The notes: a model not told the origin generated them from the letters alone. A stretch of 64,000 nt of DNA from an uncultured Clostridia bacterium (GCA_958419945.1 CATZIC010000001.1:9482-73481), one strand, 5' to 3'; counted from the first letter of the stretch, positions 722-61,206 are shown. A program made the numbers and translations.

Positions 722-816
722 TCGTTAACAGGCTTATAGCGGGATTTTAAGCTTTTTCACTCGTCCTTGCCTTGGCTTCTGGATTGCCACGGCACTCGCG
801 CGCCTCGCAATGACGG
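722..816 (+). repeat. Composite repeat: module M1 (..AACAGGCTTATAGC..) followed by module M2 (CTGGATTGCCAC-hairpin-TCGCAATGACGG)
   Basis: Same M1-spacer-M2 layout as 10747-10828, 51612-51699, 58438-58526, 60763-60845 and 60950-61034. Confidence 0.85.
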
Positions 817-992
817 TGGGGGTGCAACAAGTTTGTAGTGTGGAGTGTGGAGTTGAGGAATTTGGAGTTATTATATAAAACGTCACCGTTGGTAGTTTAT
901 GGGGCGGGCGGGAAGCGAAAGGTCGAGAAATTTGTGAGTTTGTGAGGGCTGTGGAAGTATAGGGGGTGGCGTTCTTTGTAATGCTCACGTTT

Positions 993-1030
993 CCTGGATT
1001 GCCGCGGCGCTACGCGCCTCGCAATAACGA
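993..1030 (+). repeat. Repeat module M2, solo copy
   Basis: CCTGGATTGCCGC-GGCGC-TAC-GCGCC-TCGCAATAACGA. Confidence 0.85.
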
Positions 1031-1056
1031 TAGCGGGTACAAAAGTATTATTAGAA

Positions 1057-1098
1057 ATATCCCCGCTCTTTTGCCAAACAGCAAAAGAGCGGGGATAT
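1057..1098. other. Perfect 18-bp stem with a 6-nt loop
   Basis: ATATCCCCGCTCTTTTGC-CAAACA-GCAAAAGAGCGGGGATAT. There is no clean T-run on either side. Confidence 0.8.
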
Positions 1099-1148
1099 AA
1101 AGGCTTTACAAAAAAACGTATCCCCCGCCGAAGAATTCGGAAGAGGAT

Positions 1149-1220
1149 ACAATCCCTCAGGCACATTCGTGCCAGCTCCCTTTACACAAAGGAGCCGAAT
1201 GCGGATTTAAAGATATTATA
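1149..1220 (+). repeat. Repeat module M3 (two hairpins, ends in GGATTTAAA)
   Basis: ..CCTCAGGCAC-ATTC-GTGCCAGCTCCCTTTACACAAAGGAGCC..GGATTTAAA. Homologous to 29790-29866 and 60698-60750. It abuts the rseP stop codon. Confidence 0.85.
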
Positions 1221-1225
1221 GTTAC

Positions 1226-2803
1226 TTAAAACAGTTTCAGGACGTCGACGAGGATTGCGAAAAGTAAAAGTGCAATTAGGCCTACGAAGTGGATCATGCC
1301 TTCCACGTTGCGGTTTATGGGTTTTTTGCGAATCCATTCGATAAGCACGAAAACCGCTCTTGCGCCGTCGAGGGCGGGGATAGGAAGAAGGTTGAAAATT
1401 GCAATCGACAGTCCTATCATGGAAGCGATATTTAAAACGTACTTAAAGCCGAGTGAAACGTACTGTGTGGTCAAGCTTATGGTTCCGACCGGGCCGCTTA
1501 CCGAAGTAATGGCCAATCTGCCGGTTAAAAGGTACCAAAAGGATTTAAGCGTGATACCGACGGTTTTAAAGGAGTACACGACGGCTTTGCCGATGCCTTC
1601 GAAGAATCCGAAGCGCACGTTTTCGCTGGAAATTTGGTAGGATAAAGCTTCTTCGTCTTTAATACCGAAAGCGGCAAGCACGGCCTTTTTGTCCGTCTTA
1701 TCCACAGCGTCGAAGCCGAGCGGTGCGGTAAGGGTTACCAAGTCGTTGTTCTCGTCCTCGTCCTCGCCGTCGGGAACGATTAAAGTAACGGTTTCCCCTG
1801 CTTTAAGGGTTTTTAGGCCGTTATACAGGTCGTCAAGGGTGTAAATCCTCGTGCAGTCTGCGTTATTTTCGCTGTCCTTAAAGCGGAAAACGTAGTTGCC
1901 GTTTTTTAAAGGACAGTTTTCTTCGGTGGAAAGTTTTAATACGGATGCAACGCCCAAGCCTTTCAATGCGGGGTAAACGTCAGACATGTTCTCGATAGTT
2001 ACGTCGGCGCGGAGTGCCACGGTTTTGGTTTCACGGCTGCCGTCCTCGTGTTGGACGGTTACGCTTACCAAATCCCCTTTCTTTTTGCCGTTTAAGGCAT
2101 CGGCAAGGTCGGTGGTAAAGTACAGGAATTTGCCGTCGATTTCCAAAATTATATCCTTATCCTTCAGGGACATTTCCGCCTCGGTAAGGGTATCGGTTTT
2201 AGCGACTTCGTACGCCATGAATCCGAAATGGCCGTATGCCGTGAAGTACACCATTACTATAAGGACTGCTACGACAAAGTTGAAGGTTGCGCCCGCTAAA
2301 AGGACCAGAATCCTTTGCCACGGCTTTTTATTGTTAAATGCGTCCTTGGAAAGGGTTTTTGTCGGAGTTTTCGATGTATCTTCTTGCGATTTGTCGGGGT
2401 CGGGGTTTTCGGTGGATTCCGAATTGTAATCGGTAAAAACTTCGGGATTATCGGTTTCCGTTTGGGGTTGCACGTCGGAAGCTTCCGCCCCGTTTAATGC
2501 TTTTTTCGCATCTTTTTCCTGCTTTTTCCGAATTGTTTCGTCGTCCTCGTCTTCCCCCTCGAAGGCGCAGAAACCGCCCAAAGGAAAGATCCTTATGGAG
2601 AAAACCTCTCCGTCCTTTTTTGTCTTTTTGAATATCGCAGGGCCCATGCCGATTGCGAATTCTTTTATTTTGAATTTTAACAGTTTTCCGACGATGTAAT
2701 GCCCGAACTCGTGCACCGTAATCGTTGCAAGCAGAATGAGTAGCGCAACGATTACGGACAGCACCGTTTTAAGCACCGCCGGTACCAATAAAGATTGTAA
2801 CAT
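1226..2803 (-). CDS. rseP: RIP (site-2) zinc metalloprotease RseP, M50 family, with a long acidic low-complexity insertion
   Basis: HEFGHY zinc motif in TM1, C-terminal NLLPIPALDG motif, a central PDZ-like region, and the conserved position after dxr. Confidence 0.9.
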   Translation of the reverse strand: MLQSLLVPAVLKTVLSVIVALLILLATITVHEFGHYIVGKLLKFKIKEFAIGMGPAIFKKTKKDGEVFSIRIFPLGGFCAFEGEDEDDETIRKKQEKDAKKALNGAEASDVQPQTETDNPEVFTDYNSESTENPDPDKSQEDTSKTPTKTLSKDAFNNKKPWQRILVLLAGATFNFVVAVLIVMVYFTAYGHFGFMAYEVAKTDTLTEAEMSLKDKDIILEIDGKFLYFTTDLADALNGKKKGDLVSVTVQHEDGSRETKTVALRADVTIENMSDVYPALKGLGVASVLKLSTEENCPLKNGNYVFRFKDSENNADCTRIYTLDDLYNGLKTLKAGETVTLIVPDGEDEDENNDLVTLTAPLGFDAVDKTDKKAVLAAFGIKDEEALSYQISSENVRFGFFEGIGKAVVYSFKTVGITLKSFWYLLTGRLAITSVSGPVGTISLTTQYVSLGFKYVLNIASMIGLSIAIFNLLPIPALDGARAVFVLIEWIRKKPINRNVEGMIHFVGLIALLLFAILVDVLKLF

Positions 2804-2828
2804 GTAACACCTTAAGTGATGATTTTTA

Positions 2829-3971
2829 TTATAAAAGTGCCGATAAGCGGCTTATAGCCCGACTTCTTGCCATTCGGTCGGTTTCCACAACCGAATTATA
2901 GTCGACGGTTTTTTCTATAGTAGAATCTAAAGCATCCGCCAAAAAACTGTAGATATCGGTAAACTTTATTTTGCCTTGCAAGAAGGCGTTTACAGCGATT
3001 TCGTTTGCGGCGGAAATGGCGCAGGGATAGTTGTTGCCTTTTATTATCGCCTGCTTTACAAGGGAAAAACAGGGGTATCTTTTATCGTCTATTTTCTCGA
3101 AAGTCAAGGACTTACCGCATAAATCCAAACGGTCAAGGCCTAAATTCAGCCTTTCGGGATAATTTAGCGCAAGGGCTATGGGGATTTTCATATCGGGAAC
3201 AGCCATTTGGGAAATTACGGAGCCGTCCTGAAATTCAACCATGGAATGTATTATGCTTTGGCGGTGCAAAAGCACGTCTATCTTGCTAACGTCGCAGTTA
3301 AAAAGCCATTTTGCTTCGGCGACTTCGAAACCCTTATTTACCATAGTGGCACAGTCAACCGTGATTTTTGCACCCATTTGCCAATTTGGATGGTTTAGCG
3401 CTTCTTTTGCGGTTACCTTATCGAGATTTTCCAAAGGAAGGTCCCGAAAAGCGCCGCCTGATGCGGTGATTATGAGTTTTTCAAAGGGCTTTTTTCTGTC
3501 AAGCCCGAGGGCCTGCCATATTGCGGAATGTTCGCTGTCGACGGGGATAAGGTTTACACCCTGCTTTTCGGCAAGAGCGGTAACAACCTCTCCACCCGCG
3601 ACCAAAGCCTCCTTGTTGGCGATTGCGACGTCGGTTTTGTTTTGGATTGCGGCAACCACCGCAGAAAAGCCCGCAAAGCCCATTACCGCTACAAACACCA
3701 AATCCGCATCACAAACTGCGGCGTGCATAATGGCGTTTTCACCGTAATAAAAGGATGTATTTTCCGGAACGGTTGTGACTTTCCTTGCGTATTCCGCATC
3801 GGATAAAACGGCGATATCGGGCTTATAGCGCCACATTTGCGCTTCGATCCCCTTATAATCACGGTTTGCCGCTATAGCCGTTATTTTAAATTTTTCGGGA
3901 AAGCGGTCTACGATTTCAAGCACTTGCTTGCCGATAGAACCGGTGCTTCCGATAAGCGCAATTTTCTTCAT
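2829..3971 (-). CDS. dxr: 1-deoxy-D-xylulose 5-phosphate reductoisomerase
   Basis: N-terminal GSTGSIG NADPH motif, typical length of 380 aa, and synteny cdsA-dxr-rseP. Confidence 0.93.
   Translation of the reverse strand: MKKIALIGSTGSIGKQVLEIVDRFPEKFKITAIAANRDYKGIEAQMWRYKPDIAVLSDAEYARKVTTVPENTSFYYGENAIMHAAVCDADLVFVAVMGFAGFSAVVAAIQNKTDVAIANKEALVAGGEVVTALAEKQGVNLIPVDSEHSAIWQALGLDRKKPFEKLIITASGGAFRDLPLENLDKVTAKEALNHPNWQMGAKITVDCATMVNKGFEVAEAKWLFNCDVSKIDVLLHRQSIIHSMVEFQDGSVISQMAVPDMKIPIALALNYPERLNLGLDRLDLCGKSLTFEKIDDKRYPCFSLVKQAIIKGNNYPCAISAANEIAVNAFLQGKIKFTDIYSFLADALDSTIEKTVDYNSVVETDRMARSRAISRLSALL
2839..2868 (+). repeat. Repeat module M1 copy lying inside the 3' end of dxr
   Basis: GCCGATAAGCGGCTTATAGCCCGACTTCTT. 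On the minus strand it encodes the last residues ..SRAISRLSALL of Dxr. Confidence 0.75.
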
Positions 3972-4032
3972 AATTATAATCTATTTTAATTTGCGGCGGA
4001 ATATGTAAATACTTATCCTAATACGTAAATAT

Positions 4033-4863
4033 CTATCCTATAAACGAGAACACAAGGTATATAAACGACGCACAAATCATATTGCCGTCGATTCGGTCAA
4101 GCATTCCGCCGTGGCCGGGTAAAAGTTTGCCCATGTCTTTAATTTCAAGTTTGCGTTTTATCGCGCCTTCCACTAAATCACCGAGCTCTGTAAACAGTGC
4201 ACCGAAAAGACCTATCAATAAAAACAGAACGATTTCCGCACCGACGTTTTCGGTTACACTGCCTTTTGCGTGCACGAGCCAAAAAAGTATTGACACTGCC
4301 ATTCCGCCCAAAAGTCCGCCTATAGCACCGCTAATGCGCTTTTTTGGGCTTACCTTTTCGCAAAGTTTGGGACCTTTGAAAAGGGAGCCGACGATGTACG
4401 CCAAGGCGTCCGCCACCGGGGAAATTATGAATATAAGCATAAGTGCCACGAAGGAATTACTTTCAAGCGTGTTGCAAAGAAGCATTGGAATTAGTAGCCC
4501 CGTGGGGTAAAAGAGTGCGAAAAAGGCGCAAGAAATTTTTTCGATAGTAACCTTTTCGAACTCGAAAACCATTGCGAGAAGCAGCAGTATGCATGCGCAC
4601 ATACATACGACGGCAACCGCTTGCACGCCGAAAAACACGTATACCGGGGTTACGGTCAAAGAAAACGCAAATATTACGCATTTTTGAAAATTTGTAATCC
4701 TGTCCTTGAGCGCCCTTATCATTTCATACGAGCCGACGACGGCAAATGCATAAAACAAGATATTCATTAGCCGTATATCTACTAACTCTCTTAGCAGAAA
4801 CGAGCCGACTACGACCGCTATGATAAAAACGCTGGTACCAAGTCTTATCAAGAAATTTTTCAT
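4033..4863 (-). CDS. cdsA: Phosphatidate cytidylyltransferase
   Basis: C-terminal signature GDLVEGAIKRKLEIKDMGKLLPGHGGMLDRIDG and multiple TM segments. I prefer the ATG at 4863 with AGGTGA upstream over the TTG at 4878. Confidence 0.9.
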   Translation of the reverse strand: MKNFLIRLGTSVFIIAVVVGSFLLRELVDIRLMNILFYAFAVVGSYEMIRALKDRITNFQKCVIFAFSLTVTPVYVFFGVQAVAVVCMCACILLLLAMVFEFEKVTIEKISCAFFALFYPTGLLIPMLLCNTLESNSFVALMLIFIISPVADALAYIVGSLFKGPKLCEKVSPKKRISGAIGGLLGGMAVSILFWLVHAKGSVTENVGAEIVLFLLIGLFGALFTELGDLVEGAIKRKLEIKDMGKLLPGHGGMLDRIDGNMICASFIYLVFSFIG

Positions 4864-4892
4864 TTTTTCACCTTGCAAACGGAAGATCTTCG

Positions 4893-5576
4893 TTAGTTTG
4901 CTATTCCGCCGTATCGACGGTTTCTTCCTTCAAACCACCGGATTGCTTCGTCTAAGTCGCTTGGCTTGAAATCCGGCCATAATACGTCGGTAAAATACAG
5001 TTCGGTATAAGCGGTCTGCCAAAGCATAAAATTGCTTAGGCGCTTTTCGCCTCCCGTCCTTATTACCATATCCACGGGCGGAAGGGTTTTGGTGTAAAGT
5101 TCCGCCTCTAAGTCTTTTTCTGTGGGACTTAGTATCCCCTTATCTACAAGGCCACGAAAGGCGTGCAGAATATCGGCTTTTCCGCCGTAATTAAATAATA
5201 TGTTTACCGTTTTACCGTTATCTTTGGTTTTTTCTATAGCGTCTAAAATAACCTTTCTGCGTTTTTCCGAAAGCGGGGACAGATCTCCCGAAACCATAAG
5301 CCTTATATCGTTCTTCATAAGATATGGCAGATTCCTTTTTAAAAGAACCATAAGAAGGGAAAGTATGCCGCTTACCTCGGCCTTGGGCCTCGACCAATTT
5401 TCCGTAGAAAAAGCATAAAAGGACAGAACGGTCGCACCTTTTTGAAAAGCGTAAGGAACTATTTTTTCCATTGCAGTTGCCCCCGCTTTATGCCCGTTTA
5501 AGCGAGGCTGTCCTTTCGCCGTCGCCCAGCGCCCGTTTCCGTCCATGATAAACGCTACGTGTTTTAAACCGCCCAT
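4893..5576 (-). CDS. uppS: Isoprenyl transferase / undecaprenyl diphosphate synthase
   Basis: FIMDGNGRWA and ENWSRP motifs; synteny frr-uppS-cdsA. Confidence 0.93.
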   Translation of the reverse strand: MGGLKHVAFIMDGNGRWATAKGQPRLNGHKAGATAMEKIVPYAFQKGATVLSFYAFSTENWSRPKAEVSGILSLLMVLLKRNLPYLMKNDIRLMVSGDLSPLSEKRRKVILDAIEKTKDNGKTVNILFNYGGKADILHAFRGLVDKGILSPTEKDLEAELYTKTLPPVDMVIRTGGEKRLSNFMLWQTAYTELYFTDVLWPDFKPSDLDEAIRWFEGRNRRYGGIAN

Positions 5577-6151
5577 TAAACGGTCATCACGTCCTTTTCT
5601 TTTTCGGTCTGTAATTTGTCGATACGCTCAACCGCATCGTTTACGGTATCGTTTACTTCCTTTTCAAACGAAGTGTATTCGTCTTCAGATATCTCTTTGG
5701 AAGTTTTCATCTTTTTAAGGGTATCCAAAACGTCTCTACGGATGTTTCTTACGGCGACTTTAGCGTCTTCACCCATTTTTCTTACCTGTTTACTGATTTC
5801 TTTACGTCTTTCTTCGGTAAGGTCGGGGAATACGAGTCTTATTACGGTACCGTCGTTAGTGGGCGTGATGCCGACGTTGGAGCCTAAAATGGCCTTTTCC
5901 ACGTTTTTGAGCATGCTTTTATCCCACGGCGCTATAACGAGGCATTTACCTTCCTGCACGGAAATATTGCTCATTTGCGCAACGGGGGTGGGCTGTCCAT
6001 AAAAGTCTACCATAACTTTGTCAAGCACGTGGGGATTTGCCCTGCCGAGCCTAATTTGTATATATGATTCCTTTAATACGCTGATGGTTTTGCTTGTTTT
6101 ATCTTCGCATTCAAGTAAAATCATCTCGATTTGTTCCATATCAGCTGCCAT
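5576..6151 (-). CDS. frr: Ribosome recycling factor
   Basis: IRLGRANPHVLD..V.FYG motif, about 185 aa, GAGAGGA RBS, synteny. Confidence 0.93.
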   Translation of the reverse strand: MAADMEQIEMILLECEDKTSKTISVLKESYIQIRLGRANPHVLDKVMVDFYGQPTPVAQMSNISVQEGKCLVIAPWDKSMLKNVEKAILGSNVGITPTNDGTVIRLVFPDLTEERRKEISKQVRKMGEDAKVAVRNIRRDVLDTLKKMKTSKEISEDEYTSFEKEVNDTVNDAVERIDKLQTEKEKDVMTV

Positions 6152-6246
6152 AATATATTCCTCTCTTTCTCATAATTTTTAACAATTTGTCTTTATTTTA
6201 ACCGCTTATTAAGCCGACAAAAAGTGGCTTTTACAACACTCGGCGG

Positions 6247-6945
6247 TTATTTTATCCAAGTGCCGAGTTTTTCACCCGAAACCGCACGGACGATTGAGTC
6301 TTCCTCTAATAAAAAGCATAGAACGGGTATGGAGTTTTCCATACACATGGTTATTGCGGTCATATCCATTGCCTTTAAGCCTTTTTGGATAAATTCCATA
6401 TAGGAAATTTCGTCGTACTTTACTGCCGTGGGGTCAAGCTTCGGATCGCCGGAATACACGCCGTCCACGTTTTTGGCAAGTAAAATTACGTCCGCACCTA
6501 TTTCCGCCGCACGAAGGGCTGCCGCCGTATCGGTGGAAAAATAAGGACTACCCGTTCCGCCCGCGAAAATTACGATATAACCTTTTTCAAGGTAGTGAAG
6601 GGCACGGGGCTTGGTGTAGAGTTCTGCAATTTTGTTCATTTCAACGGAAGTTAACACCACCGCTTTTGCGCCTTTTTGGCTTAGTGCATCCGCTAAGCAC
6701 AGGGAGTTTATAACCGTTGCAAGCATGCCCATTTGGTCTGCAACGGTCCTATCCATATCGGCGCCTTGCCTTCCGCGCCAAATGTTACCGGCACCGATAA
6801 CCAAAGACACCTGAACGCCGGATTTTTGAAGGGTAATAAGTTCATCCGAAACCTTACCCAAAAAATCCCTGTCGTAGCCGAAGCCCTTGTCTTTTGCGAG
6901 AGCTTCTCCGCTTAATTTTAACAAAATTTTATTAAACTTGGCCAT
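6247..6945 (-). CDS. pyrH: UMP kinase
   Basis: ILLKLSGEAL N-terminus, amino-acid kinase fold motifs, synteny tsf-pyrH-frr. Confidence 0.93.
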   Translation of the reverse strand: MAKFNKILLKLSGEALAKDKGFGYDRDFLGKVSDELITLQKSGVQVSLVIGAGNIWRGRQGADMDRTVADQMGMLATVINSLCLADALSQKGAKAVVLTSVEMNKIAELYTKPRALHYLEKGYIVIFAGGTGSPYFSTDTAAALRAAEIGADVILLAKNVDGVYSGDPKLDPTAVKYDEISYMEFIQKGLKAMDMTAITMCMENSIPVLCFLLEEDSIVRAVSGEKLGTWIK

Positions 6946-7010
6946 ATTTATCCTTATAAGTTACTATATCAGTGGGTTCGCCAAACGCCGAATTTTGTAG
7001 GCAAATTTAG

Positions 7011-7038
7011 CGATAACGGGCTTATAGCCCGACTTTTT
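7011..7038 (+). repeat. Repeat module M1
   Basis: CGATAACGGGCTTATAGCCCGACTTTTT. Confidence 0.85.
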
Positions 7039-7076
7039 AAAAAAGAGGAAACAGATATTGTGTTTCCTCTTTTTTG
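7039..7076 (-). terminator. Bidirectional rho-independent terminator downstream of tsf
   Basis: Stem AGAGGAAACA / TGTTTCCTCT flanked by an A-run and a T-run. Confidence 0.8.
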
Positions 7077-7082
7077 CGAAAA

Positions 7083-7742
7083 TTATTTCTTCATTGCTTC
7101 GACTTGGGCTGCTACTTCGTCGGCAAGGTTATCACTCTTTTTCTGTAAACCTTCACCCATTTCGTAACGGACAAATCTTCTTATCGCAATCTTTTCGCCT
7201 ATCGTAGCGGTTGCTTCGATAACGAGTTGTTCGATTGTCTTAGAAGGATCTTTAACGAACTTCTGGTTTAAAAGACAGTTGTCGTCATAGAAACTTTTAA
7301 TTCTGCCTTCTACCATCTTTTCAACGATAGCGGCGGGTTTGCCTTCTTCAAGTGCCTGAGCCTTTAAGACTGCTTTTTCTCTTTCCAAAACGTCCGTGGG
7401 AACGTCATCTTTGGTAAGATAGGAAGGGTTAGCTGCTGCAATGTGTAAGCAGATGTCGTGAGACAAGTTTTTGAACTGATCGCCACGAGCAACGAAGTCG
7501 GTTTCGCAGTTGAGCTCTAATAAAACGCCGATCTTTCCGCCCATGTGAATATAACTGTCAACGATACCTTCGGCTGCAATACGGCCTGCTTTTTTAGCCG
7601 CTTTTGCCATGCCTTTTTCTCTTAAGTAGTCTATAGCCTTTTCCATGTCGCCGTTGGTTTCTGTAAGAGCGTTCTTACAATCCATCATACCGCAACCGGT
7701 TCTTTCTCTCAATGCTTTAACGTCTTGTGCTGTAAAACTCAT
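7083..7742 (-). CDS. tsf: Translation elongation factor Ts
   Basis: N-terminal UBA-like [19 protein letters not shown]. The ATG at 7742 is preceded by AAGGAG. The ORF-track start at 7775 is probably too long. Confidence 0.92.
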
Positions 7743-7778
7743 AATAATCTCCTTATATAAAGTGTTGAGCGCCAAAGA

Positions 7779-8609: not shown

Positions 8610-8737
8610 AAAAATATACCTCCGTTAATCCTCCCCGAAGTCCTTTTTAATAGCGGCGTGATGGGCTTTTTAGATAAAGTTTTTTTTAAAGCCACGGTGT
8701 GCCGCAAACTTACGGGTGTGAATTTTTTTGCTTTGCT

Positions 8738-8766: not shown

Positions 8767-8883
8767 TCGTTTTTTAATCAAATTTCAAATTTTTGGCATT
8801 TAGTGTTGAGTGTGGATTGTAGTAGATTTGGTTTAACTGCCGTCACTAAGAACAAAGTGAGTAGATGATTTCCTGCCTTTGTG

Positions 8884-8968
8884 TCTGGATTGCCACGTCG
8901 CTTTGCGACTCGCAATGACGAAGTGAATGCACAAAATGTGCAAATAACGGGCTTATAGCCCTACTTTT
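8884..8968 (+). repeat. Repeat modules M2 (8884-8920) and M1 (8942-8968)
   Basis: TCTGGATTGCCAC-GTCGC-TTT-GCGAC-TCGCAATGACG, then AAATAACGGGCTTATAGCCCTACTTTT. M1 ends on the stop codon of the CE4 gene. Confidence 0.85.
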
Positions 8969-9800
8969 AGATACATTCCACCGTTTCGCCCGCAGGGGCT
9001 TTAAAGAGCTTTTTCTCCTTTTCAAACCAAACGGTAATGGCGCTTGGGTTGTAAACTTTTGTGGCGTCGACGGAAAATTCAAGGTTGTTAAATGCCGTTA
9101 CGTAGCGGTAGATTTCGCCGTTGGTGGCATAGTATACCTCCTTATTGTTGGCTACTTTTTTCACAAATTTTTCGATAAGAGACCAATTATCGTTTTCGTC
9201 GAACTCGTAACTATGCCCCCAAACGTAGAAAAGATAGGGTTCCCTTTCCTTTACAAAATCGTGTGGGAAGGTGTTTATAAACTTATCCGCCAAATCGAAA
9301 AGATCGGGGTCGGTGTGGTGGCAGGAGGGATTGAGTTCCAAAAAATCCTTAGGAATTTCAAAGCCGTGTGTCGAGACGGTGGTCCTTGCGTACTTTACGT
9401 TTATTAAAGAAAGATAGTCTTTGATGGTTTGTGAAAATGCGCCGTAAGGATAGGCAAAACCGCAGATTACTCTGTTAAAAATAGTTTCGAGTTCCCTTTT
9501 ATCACGCAAAACCTCGTCTAATCCACGCATAGCGTCGACCTTTGTCAAAAACAAATGTTTACTGCCGTGGGATGCGATTTCGTGATTACAATTACCGAAT
9601 AGTTCTATGGTGTCCTGCCTGTTCATTCTGCCGTGAGCGTTGTTTCCGAAAACGCCGGTATTTAGGTTGAAGGTGCATTTTAAACCGTTATCGTCAAACA
9701 GCTTCATGAGCCGTCTGTCGGCGGTAACACCGTCGTCGTAACTAAAGGTCAAAGCCTTTTCAAGCCCGTTTTCAAAACGCATAAAAACTTCGTTTTCCAT
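8967..9800 (-). CDS. Polysaccharide deacetylase (NodB homology, CE4 family)
   Basis: TFSYDDGVTADRRL and HEIASHGSKH motifs typical of CE4; no signal peptide. Confidence 0.8.
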   Translation of the reverse strand: MENEVFMRFENGLEKALTFSYDDGVTADRRLMKLFDDNGLKCTFNLNTGVFGNNAHGRMNRQDTIELFGNCNHEIASHGSKHLFLTKVDAMRGLDEVLRDKRELETIFNRVICGFAYPYGAFSQTIKDYLSLINVKYARTTVSTHGFEIPKDFLELNPSCHHTDPDLFDLADKFINTFPHDFVKEREPYLFYVWGHSYEFDENDNWSLIEKFVKKVANNKEVYYATNGEIYRYVTAFNNLEFSVDATKVYNPSAITVWFEKEKKLFKAPAGETVECI

Positions 9801-9998: not shown

Positions 9999-10748
9999 AT
10001 GAACGATATTACATACGTAGGTAAACATCTTAGAACTTACAACGTATTAAAGCACAGCCACGACAGTTGGGAACTTATTTATTGTACCGACGGTTCGGGC
10101 AGGTTTTCATTCGAGGACGGAAGCTATCTTGACTATAAAAAGGGAGATCTTGTGTTGATTCCGCCTGAAATCGTGCATGAAAACACGAGTGAAACAGGAT
10201 TTACCAATATCCACCTTAACGTAGCAAACGGCACTTTCGCCTACACTACGCCTGCACTCGTAACAGATGATAGCGAAAAGCACGTTTTGGCGACCTTTGA
10301 GGACGTGTTTTACTTTTATCATAGCAATCTTAACAAAAGGCAGCTTATACTTTCGGCGCTTGGCAACCTTATCGCTAACTACGTAATCGCCTTCCGTTCA
10401 AACAAGCCGCTATCTAAACTTGTGGAAGAAATCAAGTCGGACATAGTTAAAAACTTCCCCGACCCCGAATACAGCCTTGAAGACTTTATGCACTCATTCC
10501 CGTTTAGCTACGATTATTTAAGAAAGCTTTTTAAGAGCGAGCTTGGAATGACGCCGCATAGTTACCTAATAGAAATGCGCATGCAGACTGCGGAAAAACT
10601 TTTAGTGGATATGAAACACAACGAATACAATATAAGCATGATAGCCGAGATGTGCGGCTACGTTGAGCCGTTATACTTTTCGAGGGTGTTTAAAAAGCAT
10701 TTCGGGTGTTCGCCGAGCGTTTATCTGGAAAGGAAAAATCCGCAATAA
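9999..10748 (+). CDS. AraC-family transcriptional regulator with an N-terminal cupin sensor domain
   Basis: C-terminal dual HTH (..HSYLIEMRMQTAEKLL.. and ..MCGYVEPLYFSRVFKKHFGCSPSVY). Divergent from the CE4 gene and adjacent to the pectinolytic genes. Confidence 0.88.
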   Translation: MNDITYVGKHLRTYNVLKHSHDSWELIYCTDGSGRFSFEDGSYLDYKKGDLVLIPPEIVHENTSETGFTNIHLNVANGTFAYTTPALVTDDSEKHVLATFEDVFYFYHSNLNKRQLILSALGNLIANYVIAFRSNKPLSKLVEEIKSDIVKNFPDPEYSLEDFMHSFPFSYDYLRKLFKSELGMTPHSYLIEMRMQTAEKLLVDMKHNEYNISMIAEMCGYVEPLYFSRVFKKHFGCSPSVYLERKNPQ

Positions 10749-10828
10749 CAGAACTATAGCCCCACTTTTGAGAATTATCTCGCTTGAGTGTCCGGATTGC
10801 CACAGCAATAAGATTTCTCGCAATGACG
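10747..10828 (+). repeat. Composite repeat M1 (10747-10779) + M2 (10791-10828; central hairpin degenerate)
   Basis: AACAGAACTATAGCCCCACTTTTGAGAATTATC..TCCGGATTGCCAC..TCGCAATGACG. Confidence 0.85.
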
Positions 10829-14600: not shown

Positions 14601-17078
14601 TTAGTGATTGTCCGTCATGGAGATTGCGTTGACACGCATACCCCTTCCGGTTACGCCTGTCATAGAGCAAATTGTGTATGTGCCGGGCTGGGTGATTTCG
14701 AAGGATACCGTAACGAAAGTGGTACCCTGTACTTCGTAAGCGCCTGCTTCGGCATCGGTTACCGCGGCCGCAGTAGTTTCTTTTGCAACTAACATTGCGC
14801 CTGTGCTGTCCTTAACTGCGAGCCTTGAGTTGTTGCTTCCGCCTGTGGAAGCAAATGCTACCGTCAAAGTACCCGTGCCCTGGAAGGTTACGGATAACGT
14901 ACCTTTCTTAAGTTCGAAGCATCCGCCGGAAGAAGTTCTGTATTGGTCGCTGCCACCGAGGCTGCCGCCGAGTGTTAAGAATGCGTTTGCGCCGGTGAAG
15001 TAATCTGCTTTAAGTGCAGTTTTATCTGTGGGTGTTGCGCCAAGGGCTGCGGTCATAGAATCAACAAGTTCTTGCATACTGAAGTTGAAGGTGTCAACTG
15101 TTGCCTGCACCGGTGAATCTATCATAGAGATTGCGTTAATGCGCATGCCTCTACCGGTTACGCCTGTCTTAGAGCAAATGGTATATGTGCCGGGAGTTGT
15201 GATTTCGAAGGTTACCGGTACGAAAGTGGTACCCTGTACTTCGTAAGAACCGTCTTCAACGCCGTCTGCTACTAAAGTTGCCGTGGTTTCTTTAGCGGGA
15301 ACGATTGCGCCTGTTCCGTCTAAAAGTGCAAGTCTTGACTTGTTGCTTCCGCCTGTGGAGGCAAACGCTACCGTCAAAGTACCGGTGTTTTGGAAGGTTA
15401 CGGATAACGTACCTTTCTTAAGTTCGAAGCATCCGCCGGAAGAAGTTCTGTATTGGTCGCTGCCACCGAGGCTACCACCGAGTGTTAAAAATGCGTTTGC
15501 GCCTGTAAAGTAACCTGCAGTGAGTGCAGTCTTATCAGCAGGGGCTGCGCCGAGGGCTGCCGTCATAGTGTCAACAAGTTCTTGCATACTGAATGTGTTT
15601 TCGATAACACTTGCTTGAGCCGGAGCGTCGGTCATAGAGATTGCGTTGATACGCATGCCTCTGCCGGTTACGCCCGTCATGGAGCAGATTGTGTATGTGC
15701 CGGGAGCGGTAATTTCGAAGGTTACGGGAACGAAAGAGGTACCCTGTACTTCGTAAGAACCGTCTTCAACGCCGTCTGCTACTAAAGTTGCCGTGGTTTC
15801 TTTAGCGGGAACGATTGCGCCTGTTCCGTCTAAAAGTGCAAGTCTTGACTTGTTGCTTCCGCCTGTGGAGGCAAACGCTACCGTCAAAGTACCGGTGTTT
15901 TGGAAGGTTACGGATAACGTACCTTTCTTAAGTTCGAAGCATCCGCCGGAAGAAGTTCTATACTGGTCGCTGCCACCGAGGCTTCCGCCGAGGGTTAAGA
16001 ATGCGTTTGCGCCTGTGAAGTATTCCGCTTTAAGTGCAGTTTTGTCTGCGGGAGCTGCGCCAAGGGCTGCGGTCATAGCTTCGATAAGTTCTGGCATGCT
16101 GAAGTTATTAACGATAGGTTCGGTAGAAGGAGCCTGTTTTTCGGTTACAGTGTAAGTAACTGTGGCTTCGGAAGTGGTTGCGGATTCCGATTTAGCATTC
16201 TTTTCCGTATAAGTGGCGGAAGCGGTAAGGTTTTCGCCTGCTACGGAAGTGTCCGGCTTAACGGTAAAGTCTACGTCCTTAGCGGAAACGGTTTTGGTCT
16301 TGCCGCTTTCGTAGGTTACCGTAAACTGCCAGGTTTCGGAAATTTCGTCGGAACCTTCTTCTTGAGTGGTCAAAGTGCCTTCTGCGGTTTCATCGAAGGT
16401 AAGGGTTAATACGTCGTCGAGAACGTAAACGGTTACGAAGGCTTTAAGTGTGTAGAAGGGTTGTACCGTAGAGGGTTTTTCCACCCAAATCTGGTATGCG
16501 CCGCCTTCGGTTATGGTTGCCTTGCCGCCCTCTAAGGCTACTTCTTCTTTACCTTTATAAAGGGAGGTGGTATAGCCGGTTGCAACGTCGTCTAAAAGGT
16601 TACCAAACTGGTCGGTCTGTTTTACCACTATAGCCGCCGTGTCGATTTCAACAGGGCTTGTTAAGTGATAAGTATCCTCTACGCCGTCCTTAAGCTGTAC
16701 TGAAATACCGTCGTATTCTCTTGAACCTACGGTTACGTCATAGGTTGCGGTTTTGGTTTCGCCGTCATAGGTATAGGATACCTTGATTGTGTATTTGCCG
16801 GGTTGGAATTTGTTGTAACTGTCCGAATTGACTTCGTATTCGGATGCGGAAAGGGTTTTTATAGTTGGCGTATTGGAGTTAGCCATTTTGATTTCCGCGG
16901 TTACTTTAATTCCGTCGGCGGTAAATTCTTCACCTGTGAAAAATTCCGTTTTGGCATTTTCCACGTCGACAGAAACCGATTGCAACTTCGAAACAGTGGT
17001 CGAAATACCGCATGCGCTTAACATCATCGTCATGGCAAATACGGCAAGGACCGCTATTATTACTGATTGCTTTCTCAT
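14601..17078 (-). CDS. Surface lipoprotein with N-terminal Ig-like domains and three tandem 170-aa repeats. A carbohydrate-binding role is putative.
   Basis: Lipobox MTMMLSAC|G and AAGGAG RBS. Lies 15 nt upstream of the PL9-like gene. The unit ..FSM.EL..MTAALGA.P.DKTAL.A.YFTGANAFLTLGG..SGGCFELKKGTLSVTF.. occurs three times. Confidence 0.8.
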   Translation of the reverse strand: MRKQSVIIAVLAVFAMTMMLSACGISTTVSKLQSVSVDVENAKTEFFTGEEFTADGIKVTAEIKMANSNTPTIKTLSASEYEVNSDSYNKFQPGKYTIKVSYTYDGETKTATYDVTVGSREYDGISVQLKDGVEDTYHLTSPVEIDTAAIVVKQTDQFGNLLDDVATGYTTSLYKGKEEVALEGGKATITEGGAYQIWVEKPSTVQPFYTLKAFVTVYVLDDVLTLTFDETAEGTLTTQEEGSDEISETWQFTVTYESGKTKTVSAKDVDFTVKPDTSVAGENLTASATYTEKNAKSESATTSEATVTYTVTEKQAPSTEPIVNNFSMPELIEAMTAALGAAPADKTALKAEYFTGANAFLTLGGSLGGSDQYRTSSGGCFELKKGTLSVTFQNTGTLTVAFASTGGSNKSRLALLDGTGAIVPAKETTATLVADGVEDGSYEVQGTSFVPVTFEITAPGTYTICSMTGVTGRGMRINAISMTDAPAQASVIENTFSMQELVDTMTAALGAAPADKTALTAGYFTGANAFLTLGGSLGGSDQYRTSSGGCFELKKGTLSVTFQNTGTLTVAFASTGGSNKSRLALLDGTGAIVPAKETTATLVADGVEDGSYEVQGTTFVPVTFEITTPGTYTICSKTGVTGRGMRINAISMIDSPVQATVDTFNFSMQELVDSMTAALGATPTDKTALKADYFTGANAFLTLGGSLGGSDQYRTSSGGCFELKKGTLSVTFQGTGTLTVAFASTGGSNNSRLAVKDSTGAMLVAKETTAAAVTDAEAGAYEVQGTTFVTVSFEITQPGTYTICSMTGVTGRGMRVNAISMTDNH
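14604..16110 (-). repeat. Three direct tandem repeats of 510 bp inside the lipoprotein gene
   Basis: Units 1 and 2 are near-identical; 15228-15449 equals 15738-15959 by eye. Unit 3 is more diverged. Plus-strand shadow ORFs 15283.. and 15793.. translate identically. Confidence 0.9.
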
Positions 17079-25830: not shown

Positions 25831-25868
25831 TCTGGATTACCACGGAGCTTTAGCTCCTTTGAGTGACG
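25831..25868 (+). repeat. Repeat module M2 (diverged) between the permease and SBP genes
   Basis: TCTGGATTACCAC-GGAGCT-TT-AGCTCC-TTTGAGTGACG. Confidence 0.75.
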
Positions 25869-25876: not shown

Positions 25877-26767
25877 TTACTCTTTGACGCCGCCCATATT
25901 TACGCCCTTTGCAAAGTATTTTTGAATAAAGGGGTATATGACTAAAATGGGGATTACCGCACATACGACGAGGGCGTAGATTGCGGAGTTTGGTGCGTAG
26001 TTTTTGCTCCACCCCGCCAAATACTCTGAGTCGGTTAGTTCGGTTAGCGTGTCGTGAATGAATACCTGCAGAGGAACTTCGTTACGGTTACTAATCATTT
26101 GGTTTGCCCAGTAGTAACCATTCCAACGGGAGATCGCAAAGAACAGTGCGACCGTTGCGATGGTGGATTTACTCATCGGTATGTAGACTTTAAATAAAAC
26201 CTGCATTTCGGTTGCGCCGTCCACCCTTGCGGCCTCTTCGATTTCGGAAGGTACGCCTTCGAAAGCGTTACGAAGAAGTATAATGTTCATAGCAGCCATA
26301 CCCATTGCGATAACTATGAGCCACTTATCGTCGGTAATACCTACGCCTTCAAAAACCTTTTGAGTTGCAAGGTAGTTTAAATACTGCGGTACGATACCTG
26401 CCGAAAACCACATAGTAAATACCAAGAAGAAGTTGAAGCCTTTTCTAAATAGCAATCTCTTTTTTGAAAGCGCATAACCGCCAAGGATTGCTACGCCAAG
26501 CGCCCAAATGGTACCGTAAAGGGTTAAAAACAGTGTGTTTGTGTAAGCGTTCCAGAACATGTTGTTACCAAACATGCTTGCAAAAGCTTCAAACTGTATG
26601 TCTTTTGGGAAAAGGATGACTTCGTTATACTCTACAGCATGTCTTCCGGATATTGCAGCCGAGATGGCGTACAAGAAGGGATACAGACAACAAATAGCGA
26701 ATATCGTAAGGAAAACGTAACTTATAATTTTAAAAATCAGTTCGGATACTTCCAGTTTTCTTTTCAT
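25877..26767 (-). CDS. Carbohydrate ABC transporter permease (LplC-like)
   Basis: EAA loop EAARVDGATEMQVLFKVYIPM; 6 TM segments. Confidence 0.9.
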   Translation of the reverse strand: MKRKLEVSELIFKIISYVFLTIFAICCLYPFLYAISAAISGRHAVEYNEVILFPKDIQFEAFASMFGNNMFWNAYTNTLFLTLYGTIWALGVAILGGYALSKKRLLFRKGFNFFLVFTMWFSAGIVPQYLNYLATQKVFEGVGITDDKWLIVIAMGMAAMNIILLRNAFEGVPSEIEEAARVDGATEMQVLFKVYIPMSKSTIATVALFFAISRWNGYYWANQMISNRNEVPLQVFIHDTLTELTDSEYLAGWSKNYAPNSAIYALVVCAVIPILVIYPFIQKYFAKGVNMGGVKE

Positions 26768-29765: not shown

Positions 29766-29946
29766 ATTATTGAAGTTCGCAAGCGAACGACAAACCTTCA
29801 GGCTCTACGAGCCAGCTCCCTTTACACAAAGGAGCCAAACAAGGATTTAAAATAATTATTATAATTTCCTGGATTGCCGCGGAGCTAACGCTCCTCGCAA
29901 TGACGGGGAAAATATAGCGATAACGGGCTTATAGGCGGACTTGTTT
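29766..29946 (+). repeat. Composite repeat M3 (29766-29866) + M2 (29868-29906) + M1 (29917-29946)
   Basis: GTTCGC-AA-GCGAAC; GGCTC-TAC-GAGCC; AGCTCCCTTTACACAAAGGAGCC; CCTGGATTGCCGC-GGAGC-TAAC-GCTCC-TCGCAATGACGG; GCGATAACGGGCTTATAGGCGGAC. It ends at the uxaC stop codon. Confidence 0.88.
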
Positions 29947-51520: not shown

Positions 51521-51723
51521 AAATACGCTAACGCTAATGAAGAAATGAAGTCGCTAACGCTAATGAAGTACGCCTCACTAGCGCATTGTGGATTTAGATT
51601 ATTATAAAAATGACGATAACGGGCTTATAGCCCCACTTTTGACAATTATCCTGCTTGGGCTTCTGGATTGCCACGTCGCTTTGCGACTCGCAATGACGGA
51701 GTGGCTTGACACTCTCCAAACTC
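51521..51723 (+). repeat. Composite repeat M4 (51521-51595) + M1 (51612-51650) + M2 (51661-51699) + inverted M5
   Basis: Co-linear with 596-870. M2 reads TTCTGGATTGCCAC-GTCGC-TTT-GCGAC-TCGCAATGACGG. Confidence 0.9.
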
Positions 51724-58405: not shown

Positions 58406-58407
58406 GA

Positions 58408-58630
58408 AGTCAAGTGAAGAGTGAATAGAGAAAAGTGGCAATAACAGGCTTATAGCCCCACTTTCGAGAGCTTTTCCCACTTGGACTTCTGGATTGCCAC
58501 GTCGCTAAAGCGACTCGCAATGACGGAAGAAATAGACTGCCTTGCGATGACGATACAGAAGGTTTTTGTACAACCTTAATGACGGATCGCGAAGGGATAA
58601 ATCCACTCTCAACTATCCAAACTCCGCACT
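58408..58630 (+). repeat. Composite repeat: M5 end, M1 (58438-58466), M2 (58487-58526), two further hairpin+ATGACG units, inverted M5 end
   Basis: ..GTGAAGAGTGAATAGAGAAAAGTGGCAATAACAGGCTTATAGCCCCAC..CTGGATTGCCAC-GTCGC-TAAA-GCGAC-TCGCAATGACGG..GCGATGACGA..GGTT-TTTGTAC-AACC-TTAATGACGG..AAATCCACTCTCAAC. Confidence 0.88.
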
Positions 58631-58633
58631 ATA

Positions 58634-60472
58634 TTAAGCGTTTACTTTGTAGAAATCTACTTTTCCGCTTTCGATGTCGTAAACGATTTTGTAAGTGCCT
58701 GCAGTGCTGCATTTGAAATTAGATCCGCTTGCGGGGGTGAATAATGCGTTTGTGTCGCCGCTAGTTCCGATTACGGAAGCGCCGAGATAATCGCCGTAGC
58801 CGGTCGTTTCGCCCTTGGGATGTCTTTCCATTCCGAATTCAACCGCCGTATCAGCAGTAACCGTTAAAGTGTATTCATAGGTTTTTCCGTCTTCGGAAAT
58901 ACCGAATTTCCACTGAGCGTCGAAATTATGTGCCCAAGAGTTTATGCCGGAACCTTTGATATAGATATCCAAAGTATCCGCGGAATCGGTATGTTCGGTT
59001 ATGGTTATAATCTTGGAATAGCTGTCGAAAGAAATATCGTAAACGCCTGCGGTCAACACTTTAATATTGTTGTTAGTAGCGCTTGCCGCCGAGAAAGCAG
59101 GGTTCTTTCTAAGATAATTGTACTGATAATCGGTGCGTGTAGCCGTCCAATTCGGGGTTTCGCCCTTATTAAAGCCACGAAGTAAAAGTTCTGCGCCTTC
59201 ATTTAAGGTAACGCTTTCAATAATATAAATGCCGGAGCCTTCTTGGGTTTCGGTAAGAATGAAGTTTGCGGGCGTATTTATAAAGTCGCCGTAGTTACCG
59301 CCGTTAAAGTTGCCGTCGATATAGTAGTCGTTTGCCGCCATTTCGGCACTTTCGTACGTAACGGTAAGTTTTTGCGTATCTTTATTATAGGTAAATGTGT
59401 AGTTTCCGCTTGCTTTTGCGGTCATATTGCCTGCTTCGCCACCAACGAAAGCTTTACTTGCTTCGTCAAGGTTGCCTGCCTTTACGTAAATGCTTCCTAC
59501 GGAAGTAGTGGATTCGCCGTTTTCAATTACGGTGTTAGTAGAGGTGAACAGGAATTCTTCCCCTTCTTTAAGATAGACGGAAAGGGTGTAGTTTGAGCCG
59601 CTTTGCGCCATCTTGGTTGCGTTATTGTACATATCCGCCCAACCGGTAATGCCTGCGCCTTTAATGTAAAGGTCGGTTACGGTAACGGAATCGTTTAATA
59701 CGTCGCCGTTACGTACCCAGGTGATACTGTCGTAGGTACCCATGTTGTAGGTTTCCTTGTTTTCTTCTGTGTAAGTAGGCGCTTCGGTGTTGTAATAATC
59801 CTCGTTGGGATAGGTCTTTAAAGTAAAGGTGTAATTGCCGGCGTGTTCAACTTTGATATTTGCGGTCTTTGCTGCGTCGGTATAAGGACTTGCGTTACTT
59901 GTAAATACTTCGGTTCCGTCCGCAAGTTTGGTTTCGAGAAGATATCCGAATCCCCTTTGATTCTGCCAACTGCTGTTGATAGCGAATTGGAATTCGTCGT
60001 CCTTTTTAAGGTCCATGGTTATGGTATATTCGTTTTTATCGGCAGCTTTTTTTAGTTTGAAGCTGTCGTTTATAACCTTACCCCAGTCGGACGAGAATAA
60101 AAGTTCGCTGGTGCCGGAACCCACAACGTAATAGCTACGGACGTCCTCGGTATATAGTGTAAATCCTGCGTAAACGGACGTGTCTTCTTTTATTTTGGTT
60201 GTAAAATCGAAACGGTGGTTTTTGGAAGGAACGGCAAACCAATCTACGAATTCGTAGCCGCCGTCTTTTGTCGGGGTATAGCTTGTAAGGGTTTCACCCT
60301 CTTTTACCTTTTCGGTTTTTAAAACCGTCATCTCGGAAACTTTAGAGGTCCCCGTTGCATCATACCACGTAACCGTGTATTCCTTTTCAAGCTGAGGCGG
60401 AGTACACGCAAACGCACCAAAGCATAACACCATTACGGCGCATACTAAGAAAGCCGTTAAAATTTTCTTCAT
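58634..60472 (-). CDS. Surface lipoprotein with about four internal beta-sandwich (CBM/X25-like) repeats; putative starch/maltodextrin binding
   Basis: MKKILTAFLVCAVMVLCFGAFAC|T lipobox at the ATG at 60472, with its own promoter at 60561-60589. Recurrent blocks ..Y(Y/I)(V/K/D)G.. ..W.. ..Y(T/E)(I/L/F)T... The context is a maltodextrin locus. Confidence 0.7.
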   Translation of the reverse strand: MKKILTAFLVCAVMVLCFGAFACTPPQLEKEYTVTWYDATGTSKVSEMTVLKTEKVKEGETLTSYTPTKDGGYEFVDWFAVPSKNHRFDFTTKIKEDTSVYAGFTLYTEDVRSYYVVGSGTSELLFSSDWGKVINDSFKLKKAADKNEYTITMDLKKDDEFQFAINSSWQNQRGFGYLLETKLADGTEVFTSNASPYTDAAKTANIKVEHAGNYTFTLKTYPNEDYYNTEAPTYTEENKETYNMGTYDSITWVRNGDVLNDSVTVTDLYIKGAGITGWADMYNNATKMAQSGSNYTLSVYLKEGEEFLFTSTNTVIENGESTTSVGSIYVKAGNLDEASKAFVGGEAGNMTAKASGNYTFTYNKDTQKLTVTYESAEMAANDYYIDGNFNGGNYGDFINTPANFILTETQEGSGIYIIESVTLNEGAELLLRGFNKGETPNWTATRTDYQYNYLRKNPAFSAASATNNNIKVLTAGVYDISFDSYSKIITITEHTDSADTLDIYIKGSGINSWAHNFDAQWKFGISEDGKTYEYTLTVTADTAVEFGMERHPKGETTGYGDYLGASVIGTSGDTNALFTPASGSNFKCSTAGTYKIVYDIESGKVDFYKVNA

Positions 60473-60560
60473 GCTTAATTTTTCCTCCCGGAATTTTTTT
60501 GTTTTTTCGTAAGGCGGCTTGTTGGTACCTAACTTTGCCGCCGACTTACTTAACAAGTTA

Positions 60561-60589
60561 AGCATAACACAGCAAACCGCCTTTGTCAA
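60561..60589 (-). promoter_or_regulatory. Promoter of the lipoprotein gene
   Basis: Minus strand reads TTGACA, a 17-nt spacer, then TATGCT. Confidence 0.6.
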
Positions 60590-60624
60590 TACCCTTTTAA
60601 AAAATTTTTCAAAGAAATTTTTTG

Positions 60625-61206
60625 TGAAGTTTGGAGAGTGGAGCGTTGAGAGTGAAGTTGTGGATTTAAAGTAATTATTGAAGTTCCCTTCGTGAACGGA
60701 CAATCCTTCAGGCTCTTTCGTTTCAGCTCCATTTGCTACATATGGAGCCGATGAAAAAGTGGCAATAATCGACTTATACGCCCACTTTTGAGAATTATTC
60801 CGCTTTTGTTTCTGGATTGCCACGTCGCCCGACTCGCAATGACGGTTAAAATCGGCACATAACAGTAGCTTATGGGATGGATGGGAAAGGAAAAGTTTGG
60901 CGCATGTTTGCTTGTTGGGGCTAAAGATATTTAGCCGCCGTTTTTGTGTGATAATCGGCTTATAGCCACACTTTTGAGAATTATCACGCTTGGGTTTCTG
61001 GATTGCCACGGAGCTTACGCTCCTCGCAATGACGAAAGGGATAAATTACCTCGCAACGACAATTTGGACAGGTTTTTAAGCAAGCTTAATGACGAAATAA
61101 TAATTTAAATCCGTTTCTTTTCACTTTTCAATCTTCACTTTTCCCTTCTCCGGCGAAACATTTACCCGCCATATGTGTCGATAACGGGCTTATAGCCCCA
61201 CTTTTT
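60625..61206 (+). repeat. Largest repeat array: M5 end, M3, M1, M2, about 100 nt of unique sequence, M1, M2, two hairpin+ATGACG units, inverted M5 end, then a solo M1 (61179-61206)
   Basis: M2 copies at 60811-60845 and 60997-61034; M1 copies at 60763-60800, 60950-60986 and 61179-61206. The ends ..GAGAGTGAAGTTGTGGATTTAAAG and TTTAAATCCGTTTCTTTTCACTTTTC.. are inverted relative to each other. Confidence 0.88.

Follow-up and report, generated by a model that had tools for sequence, protein, structure and literature searches.

A dispersed hairpin repeat of an uncultured Clostridia bacterium as a CGTC-tagged REP and probable target of Ssn-type single-strand nucleases

Background

Two described systems stand closest to the repeat examined here: the CGTC-tagged repetitive extragenic palindromic (REP) sequences and the targets of the Ssn nucleases. 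The repeat, which we call M2, is present in ten copies in a stretch of 64,000 nt from an uncultured Clostridia bacterium (GCA_958419945.1, CATZIC010000001.1:9482-73481; the whole stretch is referred to as the window), together with two other hairpin repeats, M1 and M3. A preliminary description of this DNA had proposed that compensatory base changes keep the hairpins intact across copies, and that covariation of this kind implies selection on the fold, either as RNA or as a single-stranded DNA (ssDNA) substrate.

The CGTC REPs carry an unpaired CGTC head (or TGTC/CCTC), a stem of 8-9 bp that begins with A-T pairs, a loop of 4-5 nt and a CCA tail (Di Nocera 2013, PMC3733652). They lie mostly between convergent genes or genes of the same direction. 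Heads-out (HH) dimers predominate, families of single units are allowed, and subfamilies with alternative, complementary stem residues were already noted. The same survey remarked that these repeats 'seem lacking a dedicated transposase', and included the Neisseria repeats dRS3/NTS and the Rickettsia repeats RPE-4 and RPE-6 in the super-family (PMC3733652).

The Ssn proteins are GIY-YIG proteins of the type cd10448, and the repeats that go with them have been named NTS or Ssn-related motif (SRM) (Chenal et al. 2025, Nat Commun 16:2388, PMC11893778). SsnA binds and cuts NTS only as ssDNA, on one strand and a few nucleotides 5' of the head, and the enzyme of Neisseria meningitidis binds neither RNA nor double-stranded DNA. 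The sequence of the palindrome matters; so do, for cutting, the three bases that precede it and, for binding, the C that directly follows. The loop, by contrast, can be dispensed with, and extensions put in its place may be paired or unpaired. The architecture NTS-ssnA-NTS resembles that of an insertion sequence (PMC11893778). The association between Ssn (GIY-YIG) proteins and such repeats was considered as a novelty and dropped, as it had already been reported in that study. The family to which M2 belongs, its enzyme and the recognition rules are thus published; what is new here is the arrangement of M2 as singletons on one strand and its fixed composite with M1.

M2 is a CGTC-tagged REP

The ten copies of M2 in the window are the following; the positions 779, 993 and 8884 of the preliminary description, for instance, denote the copies given here as 779..815, 994..1029 and 8885..8920.

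779..815, minus strand: M2, inner stem GGCAC/GCGCC with one mismatch; canonical fold not taken
994..1029, minus strand: M2, inner stem GGCGC/GCGCC; head variant CGTT
8885..8920, minus strand: M2, inner stem GTCGC/GCGAC; begins 47 nt past the stop codon of gene 8967..9800 (minus strand)
10792..10828, minus strand: M2, inner stem lost; tail CCGG
25832..25868, minus strand: degenerate M2, outer stem lost, inner GGAGC/GCTCC kept; 9 nt after the stop of gene 25877..26767
29869..29905, minus strand: M2, inner stem GGAGC/GCTCC; convergent intergenic region between the pectinesterase gene and uxaC
51663..51698, minus strand: M2, inner stem GTCGC/GCGAC; convergent intergenic region
58489..58525, minus strand: M2, inner stem GTCGC/GCGAC, loop TAAA; convergent intergenic region
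60812..60844, minus strand: M2, inner stem truncated; 945-nt divergent intergenic region
60998..61034, minus strand: M2, inner stem GGAGC/GCTCC; the same 945-nt divergent region

Read on the plus strand, the unit consists of CTGGATTGCC(A/G)C, a 5-nt arm, a loop, a second 5-nt arm and TCGCAATGACG. On the minus strand it reads CGTC-ATTGCGAG...GCAAT-CCAG, or, written as an oligonucleotide, 5'-..CGTCATTGCGAG(inner stem)GTGGCAATCCAGA... The architecture is an outer stem of 5 bp, an internal loop of 3x2 nt, an inner stem of 5 bp and a loop of 3-4 nt. The exact pattern (ATTGCCRC-N8-24-TCGCAAT) has nine matches in the window, all on the plus strand, and none in shuffled window sequence; the tenth copy, at 25831, is degenerate. 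The conserved flanks described earlier are therefore real, and so are the inner stems: GTCGC/GCGAC (8884, 51661 and 58487), GGAGC/GCTCC (29868, 60997 and 25831) and GGCGC/GCGCC (993), with the exceptions already named, i.e. one mismatch at 779, a shortened stem at 60811 and a lost stem at 10791.

The anatomy on the minus strand is that of the CGTC REPs. An unpaired CGTC head is found in nine copies (CGTT in the copy at 994), the stem starts with A-T pairs (ATTGC/GCAAT in nine of ten), and the tail is CCAG in nine copies and CCGG in one, which fits CCA. None of the ten copies is within a gene: five convergent regions (644/1226, 10748/10923, 29698/29947, 51509/51774 and 58354/58634) hold six of them, two (8885 and 25832) separate minus-strand genes of the same direction, and two are in a divergent region. 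M2 further shares with the family its complementary stem subfamilies and, in other genomes, the heads-out dimers. We conclude that M2 is a CGTC-tagged REP, i.e. an Ssn-related motif of the ATTGCGAG stem type. It differs in that its stem is built in two parts (5 bp, a 3x2 loop, 5 bp) where the family description has a plain 8-9 bp stem and a loop of 4-5 nt, and in that its copies in the window are singletons on one strand (10/10; two-sided binomial probability 0.002), with no dimers, usually fused at a fixed distance to M1. About 12 further nucleotides past the tail (YGCYTKGGYTT before CTGG) are conserved at 769-781, 8874-8886, 51652-51664 and 60988-61000, so that the repeated unit in this genome is longer than the hairpin.

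A scan of other genomes with the pattern GGATTGCC-N10-22-TCGCAATGACG, one genome per species, found the exact flanks in at least 118 loci of many phyla. The hosts among the matches listed include Alpha- and Betaproteobacteria, Treponema, Fibrobacter, Chitinispirillales, Oscillospiraceae, Elusimicrobium, Opitutaceae, Armatimonadota, Cytophagales and Helicobacter canis, a range much wider than the five phyla of 2013. With a slightly relaxed pattern, 50 of the 80 neighbouring pairs among the matches listed are heads-out inverted doublets, with the GGATTGC ends inward and spacers of 14-40 nt. Some of the cross-genome matches are coding false positives: the match at 5453-5482 of locus L018 falls by chance within a glycosyltransferase gene (peptide PVIATDVGGNPE). 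Head-to-tail tandem arrays of CGTC-type repeats were also seen, with periods of about 67 nt (L088, 6-437), about 140 nt (L092, 2882-3299) and about 31 nt (L197, 607-757).

The Neisseria dRS3 and Rickettsia RPE-4 and RPE-6 repeats, which Di Nocera placed in the same super-family, are likewise dispersed hairpins, but they have other stems; those of Neisseria cluster into mosaic arrays, and those of Rickettsia are often intragenic. No Rfam family matched the window at gathering scores, raising the E-value limit to 10 added nothing above chance level, and a full-text literature search with the repeat DNA strings and the peptides of spurious open reading frames (ORFs) returned nothing relevant. The cyanobacterial HIP1/SDR elements were considered and rejected, as GCGATCGC is absent from the window.

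Pairing of the inner stem is maintained

The pairing of the inner stem was compared with that of shuffled partners (500 shuffles), with slid registers as a control. In the alignment of the ten window copies 93.3% of the cells are paired as opposed to 82.3% after shuffling, a level that none of the 500 shuffles reached; three inner-stem pairs show changes on both sides, and slid registers pair in only 27-51% of cells. The ten copies fall into only three stem types and four of them are decaying, as would be expected if the variants were simply a few clonal subfamilies that inherited their pairing, without selection, from palindromic founders. This objection had been raised from the outset.

It does not extend to the other genomes. 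There, 126 distinct interiors from more than 100 genomes, among the matches listed, pair at 3.75 of the five inner positions, against 2.68 +/- 0.08 for shuffled partners (z about 14). Dozens of different stem sequences are represented and still pair; at three positions the pair is G-C in some interiors and C-G in others, and a TC/TC internal loop is conserved in one large subfamily. Among 40 copies of equal length, 27 cells are changed on both sides where 11.7 +/- 2.3 are expected (a count not attained in any of 500 shuffles), two-sided changes occur in four pairs, and the slid registers fall to 25-46% paired. A purely clonal origin of the paired variants is therefore distinctly improbable in our opinion.

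Nine M2 copies and both M3 copies were folded as ssDNA and scored against shuffles. Five of the nine M2 copies adopt the expected two-helix hairpin; those at 779, 10791 and 60811 score no better than shuffles, and those at 8884 and 25831 fold well, but into a structure other than the expected one. For M2, whose inner stem stays paired both in the window and in other genomes, the claim that covariation reflects selection on the fold, as opposed to mere decay of the copies, is right; it fails for M1, and for M3 there are two copies only (see below). Given the three clonal subfamilies and the four damaged copies, selection probably acts on which source copies propagate and not on every copy.

The landing-site explanation may be considered here, namely that M2, with no function of its own, passively receives other mobile DNA such as IS110-family elements or is used by phage recombinases. 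The Introduction of the Ssn study presents dRS3 as a known target of a phage recombinase (PMC11893778), and REPs are targets of insertion sequences (PMC1525189). However, none of the ten window copies is interrupted by an insertion sequence or a phage gene, and both the covariation and the conserved, asymmetric flanks would be left unexplained; we consider this explanation very unlikely.

Repeats with the M2 stem flank ssn-like genes in other genomes

In loci L085 and L018 an ORF of about 95 aa that encodes a GIY-YIG protein was found between CGTC-type repeats. A metagenome scan with these two proteins as queries yielded 80 loci (L120-L199), in which repeats near the nuclease genes were detected as C/TGTCAT, a 6-nt stem and its reverse complement at most 45 nt further on. 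The repeats are concentrated at the gene: their density is 6.8 per kb in the 100 nt next to a gene end and drops to 0.1-0.2 per kb at distances of more than 500 nt. Upstream, the repeat has its head toward the gene, and its distance from the ATG is 1-40 nt in most loci (a repeat within 80 nt exists in 45 of the 66 assessable loci). Downstream, where 47 of the 78 assessable loci have a repeat, it is inverted, and in 19 loci it shares two bases with the stop codon. An asymmetry with a long upstream and a short downstream repeat is weak (22 versus 11). The stem of 85 of the 103 repeats that flank ssn-like genes is ATTGCGAG, the same as in M2.

The metagenomic nuclease matches Pfam GIY-YIG, and it is 45% identical over its full length to a GIY-YIG gene of N. 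gonorrhoeae flanked by NTS repeats, presumably the SsnA orthologue. The arrangement repeat-ssn-repeat, each time with the CGTC-type repeat of the host itself, was found in N. gonorrhoeae, N. aromaticivorans pNL2, S. meliloti, A. lipoferum 4B and Shinella sp. PSBB067.

In two of these genomes such a block occupies the gap between sufB and sufC. It is present in A. lipoferum 4B (L203, 1355-1971) and, independently and with a different repeat type, in Shinella sp. PSBB067 (L207, 344-848), and absent from A. ramasamyi, Azospirillum sp. B510 and A. brasilense (L204, L205 and L206). Other small genes are found in the same gap in Sphingomonas parapaucimobilis (DUF559) and Paracoccus. A target duplication at the Azospirillum block is not definable, the flanks having diverged.

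The published SRM motif, implemented as HGTCWYN(0-2)YYVSBRHN(0-5)WNVSBRGN(0-2)RNCYNB, matches none of the 103 repeats flanking ssn-like genes. The ATTGCGAG stem type is therefore probably under-counted by this motif, and the membership of M2 among the SRMs rests on its anatomy and on the gene association in other genomes. M2 has GTC 5' of the palindrome in nine of ten copies and C 3' of it in all ten, and in this, in its directional hairpin and in the repeat-ssn-repeat order of the 80 metagenomic loci the M2 type agrees with the NTS/SRM and SsnA system. It differs in its stem, ATTGCGAG instead of ATTCCCGC, and in that the window contains no ssn gene.

Mobilisation by a REP-associated tyrosine transposase (RAYT), an IS200-like enzyme of the HUH type, as in the GTAG REPs and REPINs, would involve a similar design: an ssDNA hairpin with an unpaired tetranucleotide head, read by a small nuclease whose gene is flanked by repeats, and inverted doublets that look gene-less and resemble REPINs. 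M2, however, has a CGTC head in place of GTAG; in the survey of Di Nocera et al. no RAYT had CGTC repeats at its flanks (PMC3733652); and the gene that M2-type repeats do flank encodes a GIY-YIG nuclease, a fold different from that of the HUH transposases. Within 3 kb of the 118 loci listed no transposase recurs; the only recurrent neighbours are common families (e.g. ABC ATPases) and spurious ORFs encoded by the repeats themselves. We regard the involvement of a RAYT as extremely unlikely.

A further parallel is provided by the attC sites of integrons, which, like M2, combine conserved flanks with a variable, paired centre and are recognised as folded ssDNA on one strand. They differ from M2 in their unrelated sequence, in the use of a tyrosine recombinase and in their organisation in cassette arrays.

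M2 as DNA or as RNA

Eight of the ten M2 copies are sense-oriented downstream of the stop codon of a minus-strand gene, at a distance of 9-110 nt or just past a terminator. Such positions would suit an RNA function, in which M2 is a hairpin in the 3' untranslated region that stabilises or terminates the transcripts of the minus-strand genes upstream. Many REPs have been argued to be transcribed, from the occurrence of G-T pairs and the position between convergent or same-direction genes (PMC3733652), and TTCG-type loops are frequent in the M2 copies of other genomes, among the matches listed.

On the other hand, the M2 hairpin has no T-tract and is followed by GACGG or GACGA, and the terminator-like sites in positions 1-18000 include copies of M1 but none of M2. 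Two M2 copies are in a divergent region, and those at 779, 993 and 10792 lie past terminator-like hairpins. Inverted doublets are the main form of the family elsewhere (among the matches listed), and its singletons in other genomes are co-directional with the flanking genes in 12 cases and opposed in 10, according to rough, ORF-based gene calls. M2 has no Rfam match, and the SsnA of N. meningitidis does not bind RNA (PMC11893778). The orientation seen in the window is of limited help: since the minus strand carries 85% of the coding bases, the window cannot separate an orientation in the sense of the upstream gene from one fixed with respect to replication. Altogether an RNA function of M2 appears improbable, and of the two options that had been left side by side in the preliminary description, ssDNA is the better supported.

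A model for recognition by an Ssn nuclease

We consider it likely that M2, as a CGTC-tagged REP and ATTGCGAG-type Ssn-related motif, acts through an ssDNA hairpin that is recognised by an Ssn nuclease. The single-stranded minus strand would fold as 5'-C-GTC, ATTGC-GAG-(5-bp inner stem, loop, inner stem)-GYG-GCAAT, CC-AG-3'. By analogy with the Neisseria and Wolbachia systems, an Ssn-family GIY-YIG nuclease of about 95 aa, presumably encoded elsewhere in the genome, would bind M2 on the minus strand only, read the GTC head, the outer palindrome and the following C by sequence, and nick a few nucleotides 5' of the head. The inner stem would occupy the position of the loop, where the sequence may go unread and pairing would serve to stabilise the hairpin. 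If only paired variants were kept or propagated, compensatory changes would result. Candidate benefits for the cell are the restriction of incoming ssDNA, as in Neisseria, or the mobilisation of the repeats.

This model accounts for the uneven conservation of M2. The head, outer helix and tail, which are nearly invariant in the window and across phyla, correspond to the parts that Ssn reads by sequence. Since the loop is dispensable to the enzyme, a conserved outer stem can go together with a freely co-varying inner stem, and since the inner sequence is tolerated, pairing there can matter only through the stability of the ssDNA hairpin.

Several observations weigh against recognition of M2 by an Ssn nuclease in this organism. 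A GIY-YIG gene was found neither in the 64-kb window nor in the overlapping contig L001, and the published SRM motif matches none of the ten M2 copies, nor any other position in the window. The copies here are singletons where doublets are usual elsewhere, and eight of ten have the gene-related orientation described above. They represent only three stem subfamilies and four of the ten are structurally damaged, so that some or all of them may be relics.

M1 and its composite with M2

M1 has the core consensus GATAACGGGCTTATAGCCC, followed by ACTTTT, and occurs in about 17 plus-strand copies between positions 724 and 61198, with further copies on the minus strand:

724..742, plus strand: M1 core, 55 nt upstream of the M2 at 779
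8943..8961, plus strand: M1 core, begins 23 nt past the end of the M2 8885-8920
10744..10762, plus strand: M1 core, composite, 48 nt upstream of M2
29919..29937, plus strand: M1 core, begins 14 nt past the end of the M2 29869-29905
51615..51633, plus strand: M1 core, composite, 48 nt upstream of M2
58440..58458, plus strand: M1 core, composite, 49 nt upstream of M2
60764..60782, plus strand: M1 core, composite, 48 nt upstream of M2
60950..60968, plus strand: M1 core, composite, 48 nt upstream of M2
2842..2860, plus strand: solitary M1 core, dxr/rseP junction
7012, 17180, 41700, 41846 and 61180: solitary M1 cores
31724 and 44144: M1 cores within long ORFs
near 27939 and 48051, minus strand: M1 copies

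An M1 lies within 60 nt of eight of the ten M2 copies, and in five it is exactly 48-49 nt upstream. This fixed distance implies that the unit is often a composite of about 110 nt. Among all loci analysed, M1 was found elsewhere only in L001, the overlapping contig of the same organism.

The hairpin GGGCT-TAT-AGCCC of M1 is real. The alternation with a second form, CGACC-TATA-GGTCG, that had been proposed is not: this form is absent from the window (the nearest match is CGACCTATAGGCCG at 10848), and CGACC and GGTCG are one arm read on opposite strands. The pairing of M1 (69.5% of cells) is close to that after shuffling (67.8%; 150 of 500 shuffles do as well), and its variants break pairs rather than compensate, with only one cell changed on both sides.

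M1 is strongly strand-biased and terminator-like on the strand antisense to the flanking genes. A role as a normal terminator was rejected, as the T-tract is antisense to the flanking genes in most tandem regions, and so was a role as a promoter (Bacteroidota-type TTTG / TAnnTTTG, or sigma-70), as the flanks have no consistent motif or spacing. On the minus strand M1 reads AAAA-GT(G/C/A)G-GGCT-ATA-AGCC-CGTTATC, a GTNG head with a 5-bp hairpin that recalls the GTAG-tagged REPs. In the composites an outer GATAAY/RTTATC pairing encloses M1, with one compensatory variant at 60764 (AATAAT/ATTATT).

A more far-reaching possibility, which we put forward only tentatively and think unlikely, is that the Ssn hairpin has been built into the composite of about 110 nt, that the composite spreads as singletons on one strand, and that Ssn is its transposase. 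The elements would then form a class of ssDNA transposons whose repeats move as ssDNA, coupled to replication, and Ssn would be more than a restriction-like system. M1, with its minus-strand GTNG and 5-bp hairpin, could be a second, GTAG-like partner in such a transposon.

M3 and other features of the window

Two copies of M3 are present:

1160..1197, plus strand: M3, adjacent hairpins GGCAC-ATTC-GTGCC and GCTCC(C)TTT-ACAC-AAAGGAGC
29801..29837, plus strand: M3, GGCTC-TAC-GAGCC with a second hairpin as in the first copy; immediately upstream of the M2 at 29869

The hairpins are as described earlier (GGCAC-ATTC-GTGCC at 1160 and GGCTC-TAC-GAGCC at 29800) and the folds are strong (z of -5.0 at 1160 and -4.1 at 29800); one compensatory pair, an exchange of A-T to T-A, separates the two copies, which are too few for statistics.

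The window is ordinary chromosome of about 43% G+C, with rseP, dxr, uxaC, a pectinesterase gene and genes for ABC and FtsX transporters; no tRNA or tmRNA genes were found in it. The third-position GC skew is about +0.11 on the plus strand. This and the orientation of the genes point in opposite ways as to which strand is leading.

The 791-aa ORF 58634..61009 is too long at its N-terminus, where some 184 residues are translated from M1/M2 repeats (e.g. NRHCESGDVAIQ), and the real start is near 60457, with a lipoprotein signal, MKKILTAFLVCAVMVLCFGAFAC. It is this start that leaves the 945-nt divergent intergenic region with its two M2 copies. Three tandem copies of about 510 nt (82-85% identical) at 14610-16057 lie inside the 825-aa ORF 14601..17078, which suggests that the protein contains a repeated domain. 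The segments 21828-22114 and 34903-35189, each of about 290 nt and both within genes on the minus strand, are 13 kb apart and 70-75% identical; probably they are paralogous parts of these genes. At 10842-10908 and 7040-7075, next to M1 and M2 copies and distinct from them, are terminator-like hairpins of the classical two-way type, with both an A-tract and a T-tract (e.g. AAAAACCGACCTATAGGCCGGTTTTTT).

Implications

The covariation of M2, which resembles that of an RNA, would here be the signature of a protein that reads a DNA hairpin in part by sequence and for the rest by shape, and the inner-stem covariation would be the evolutionary counterpart of the loop replacements made in vitro. The ATTGCGAG stem type is very common, is present in many phyla and is missed by the SRM motif, and at the flanks of ssn-like genes it sits as close as the Neisseria type. 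The singleton, one-strand arrangement fused to M1 could be used genome-wide to test for a replication-linked spread of Ssn repeats as ssDNA.

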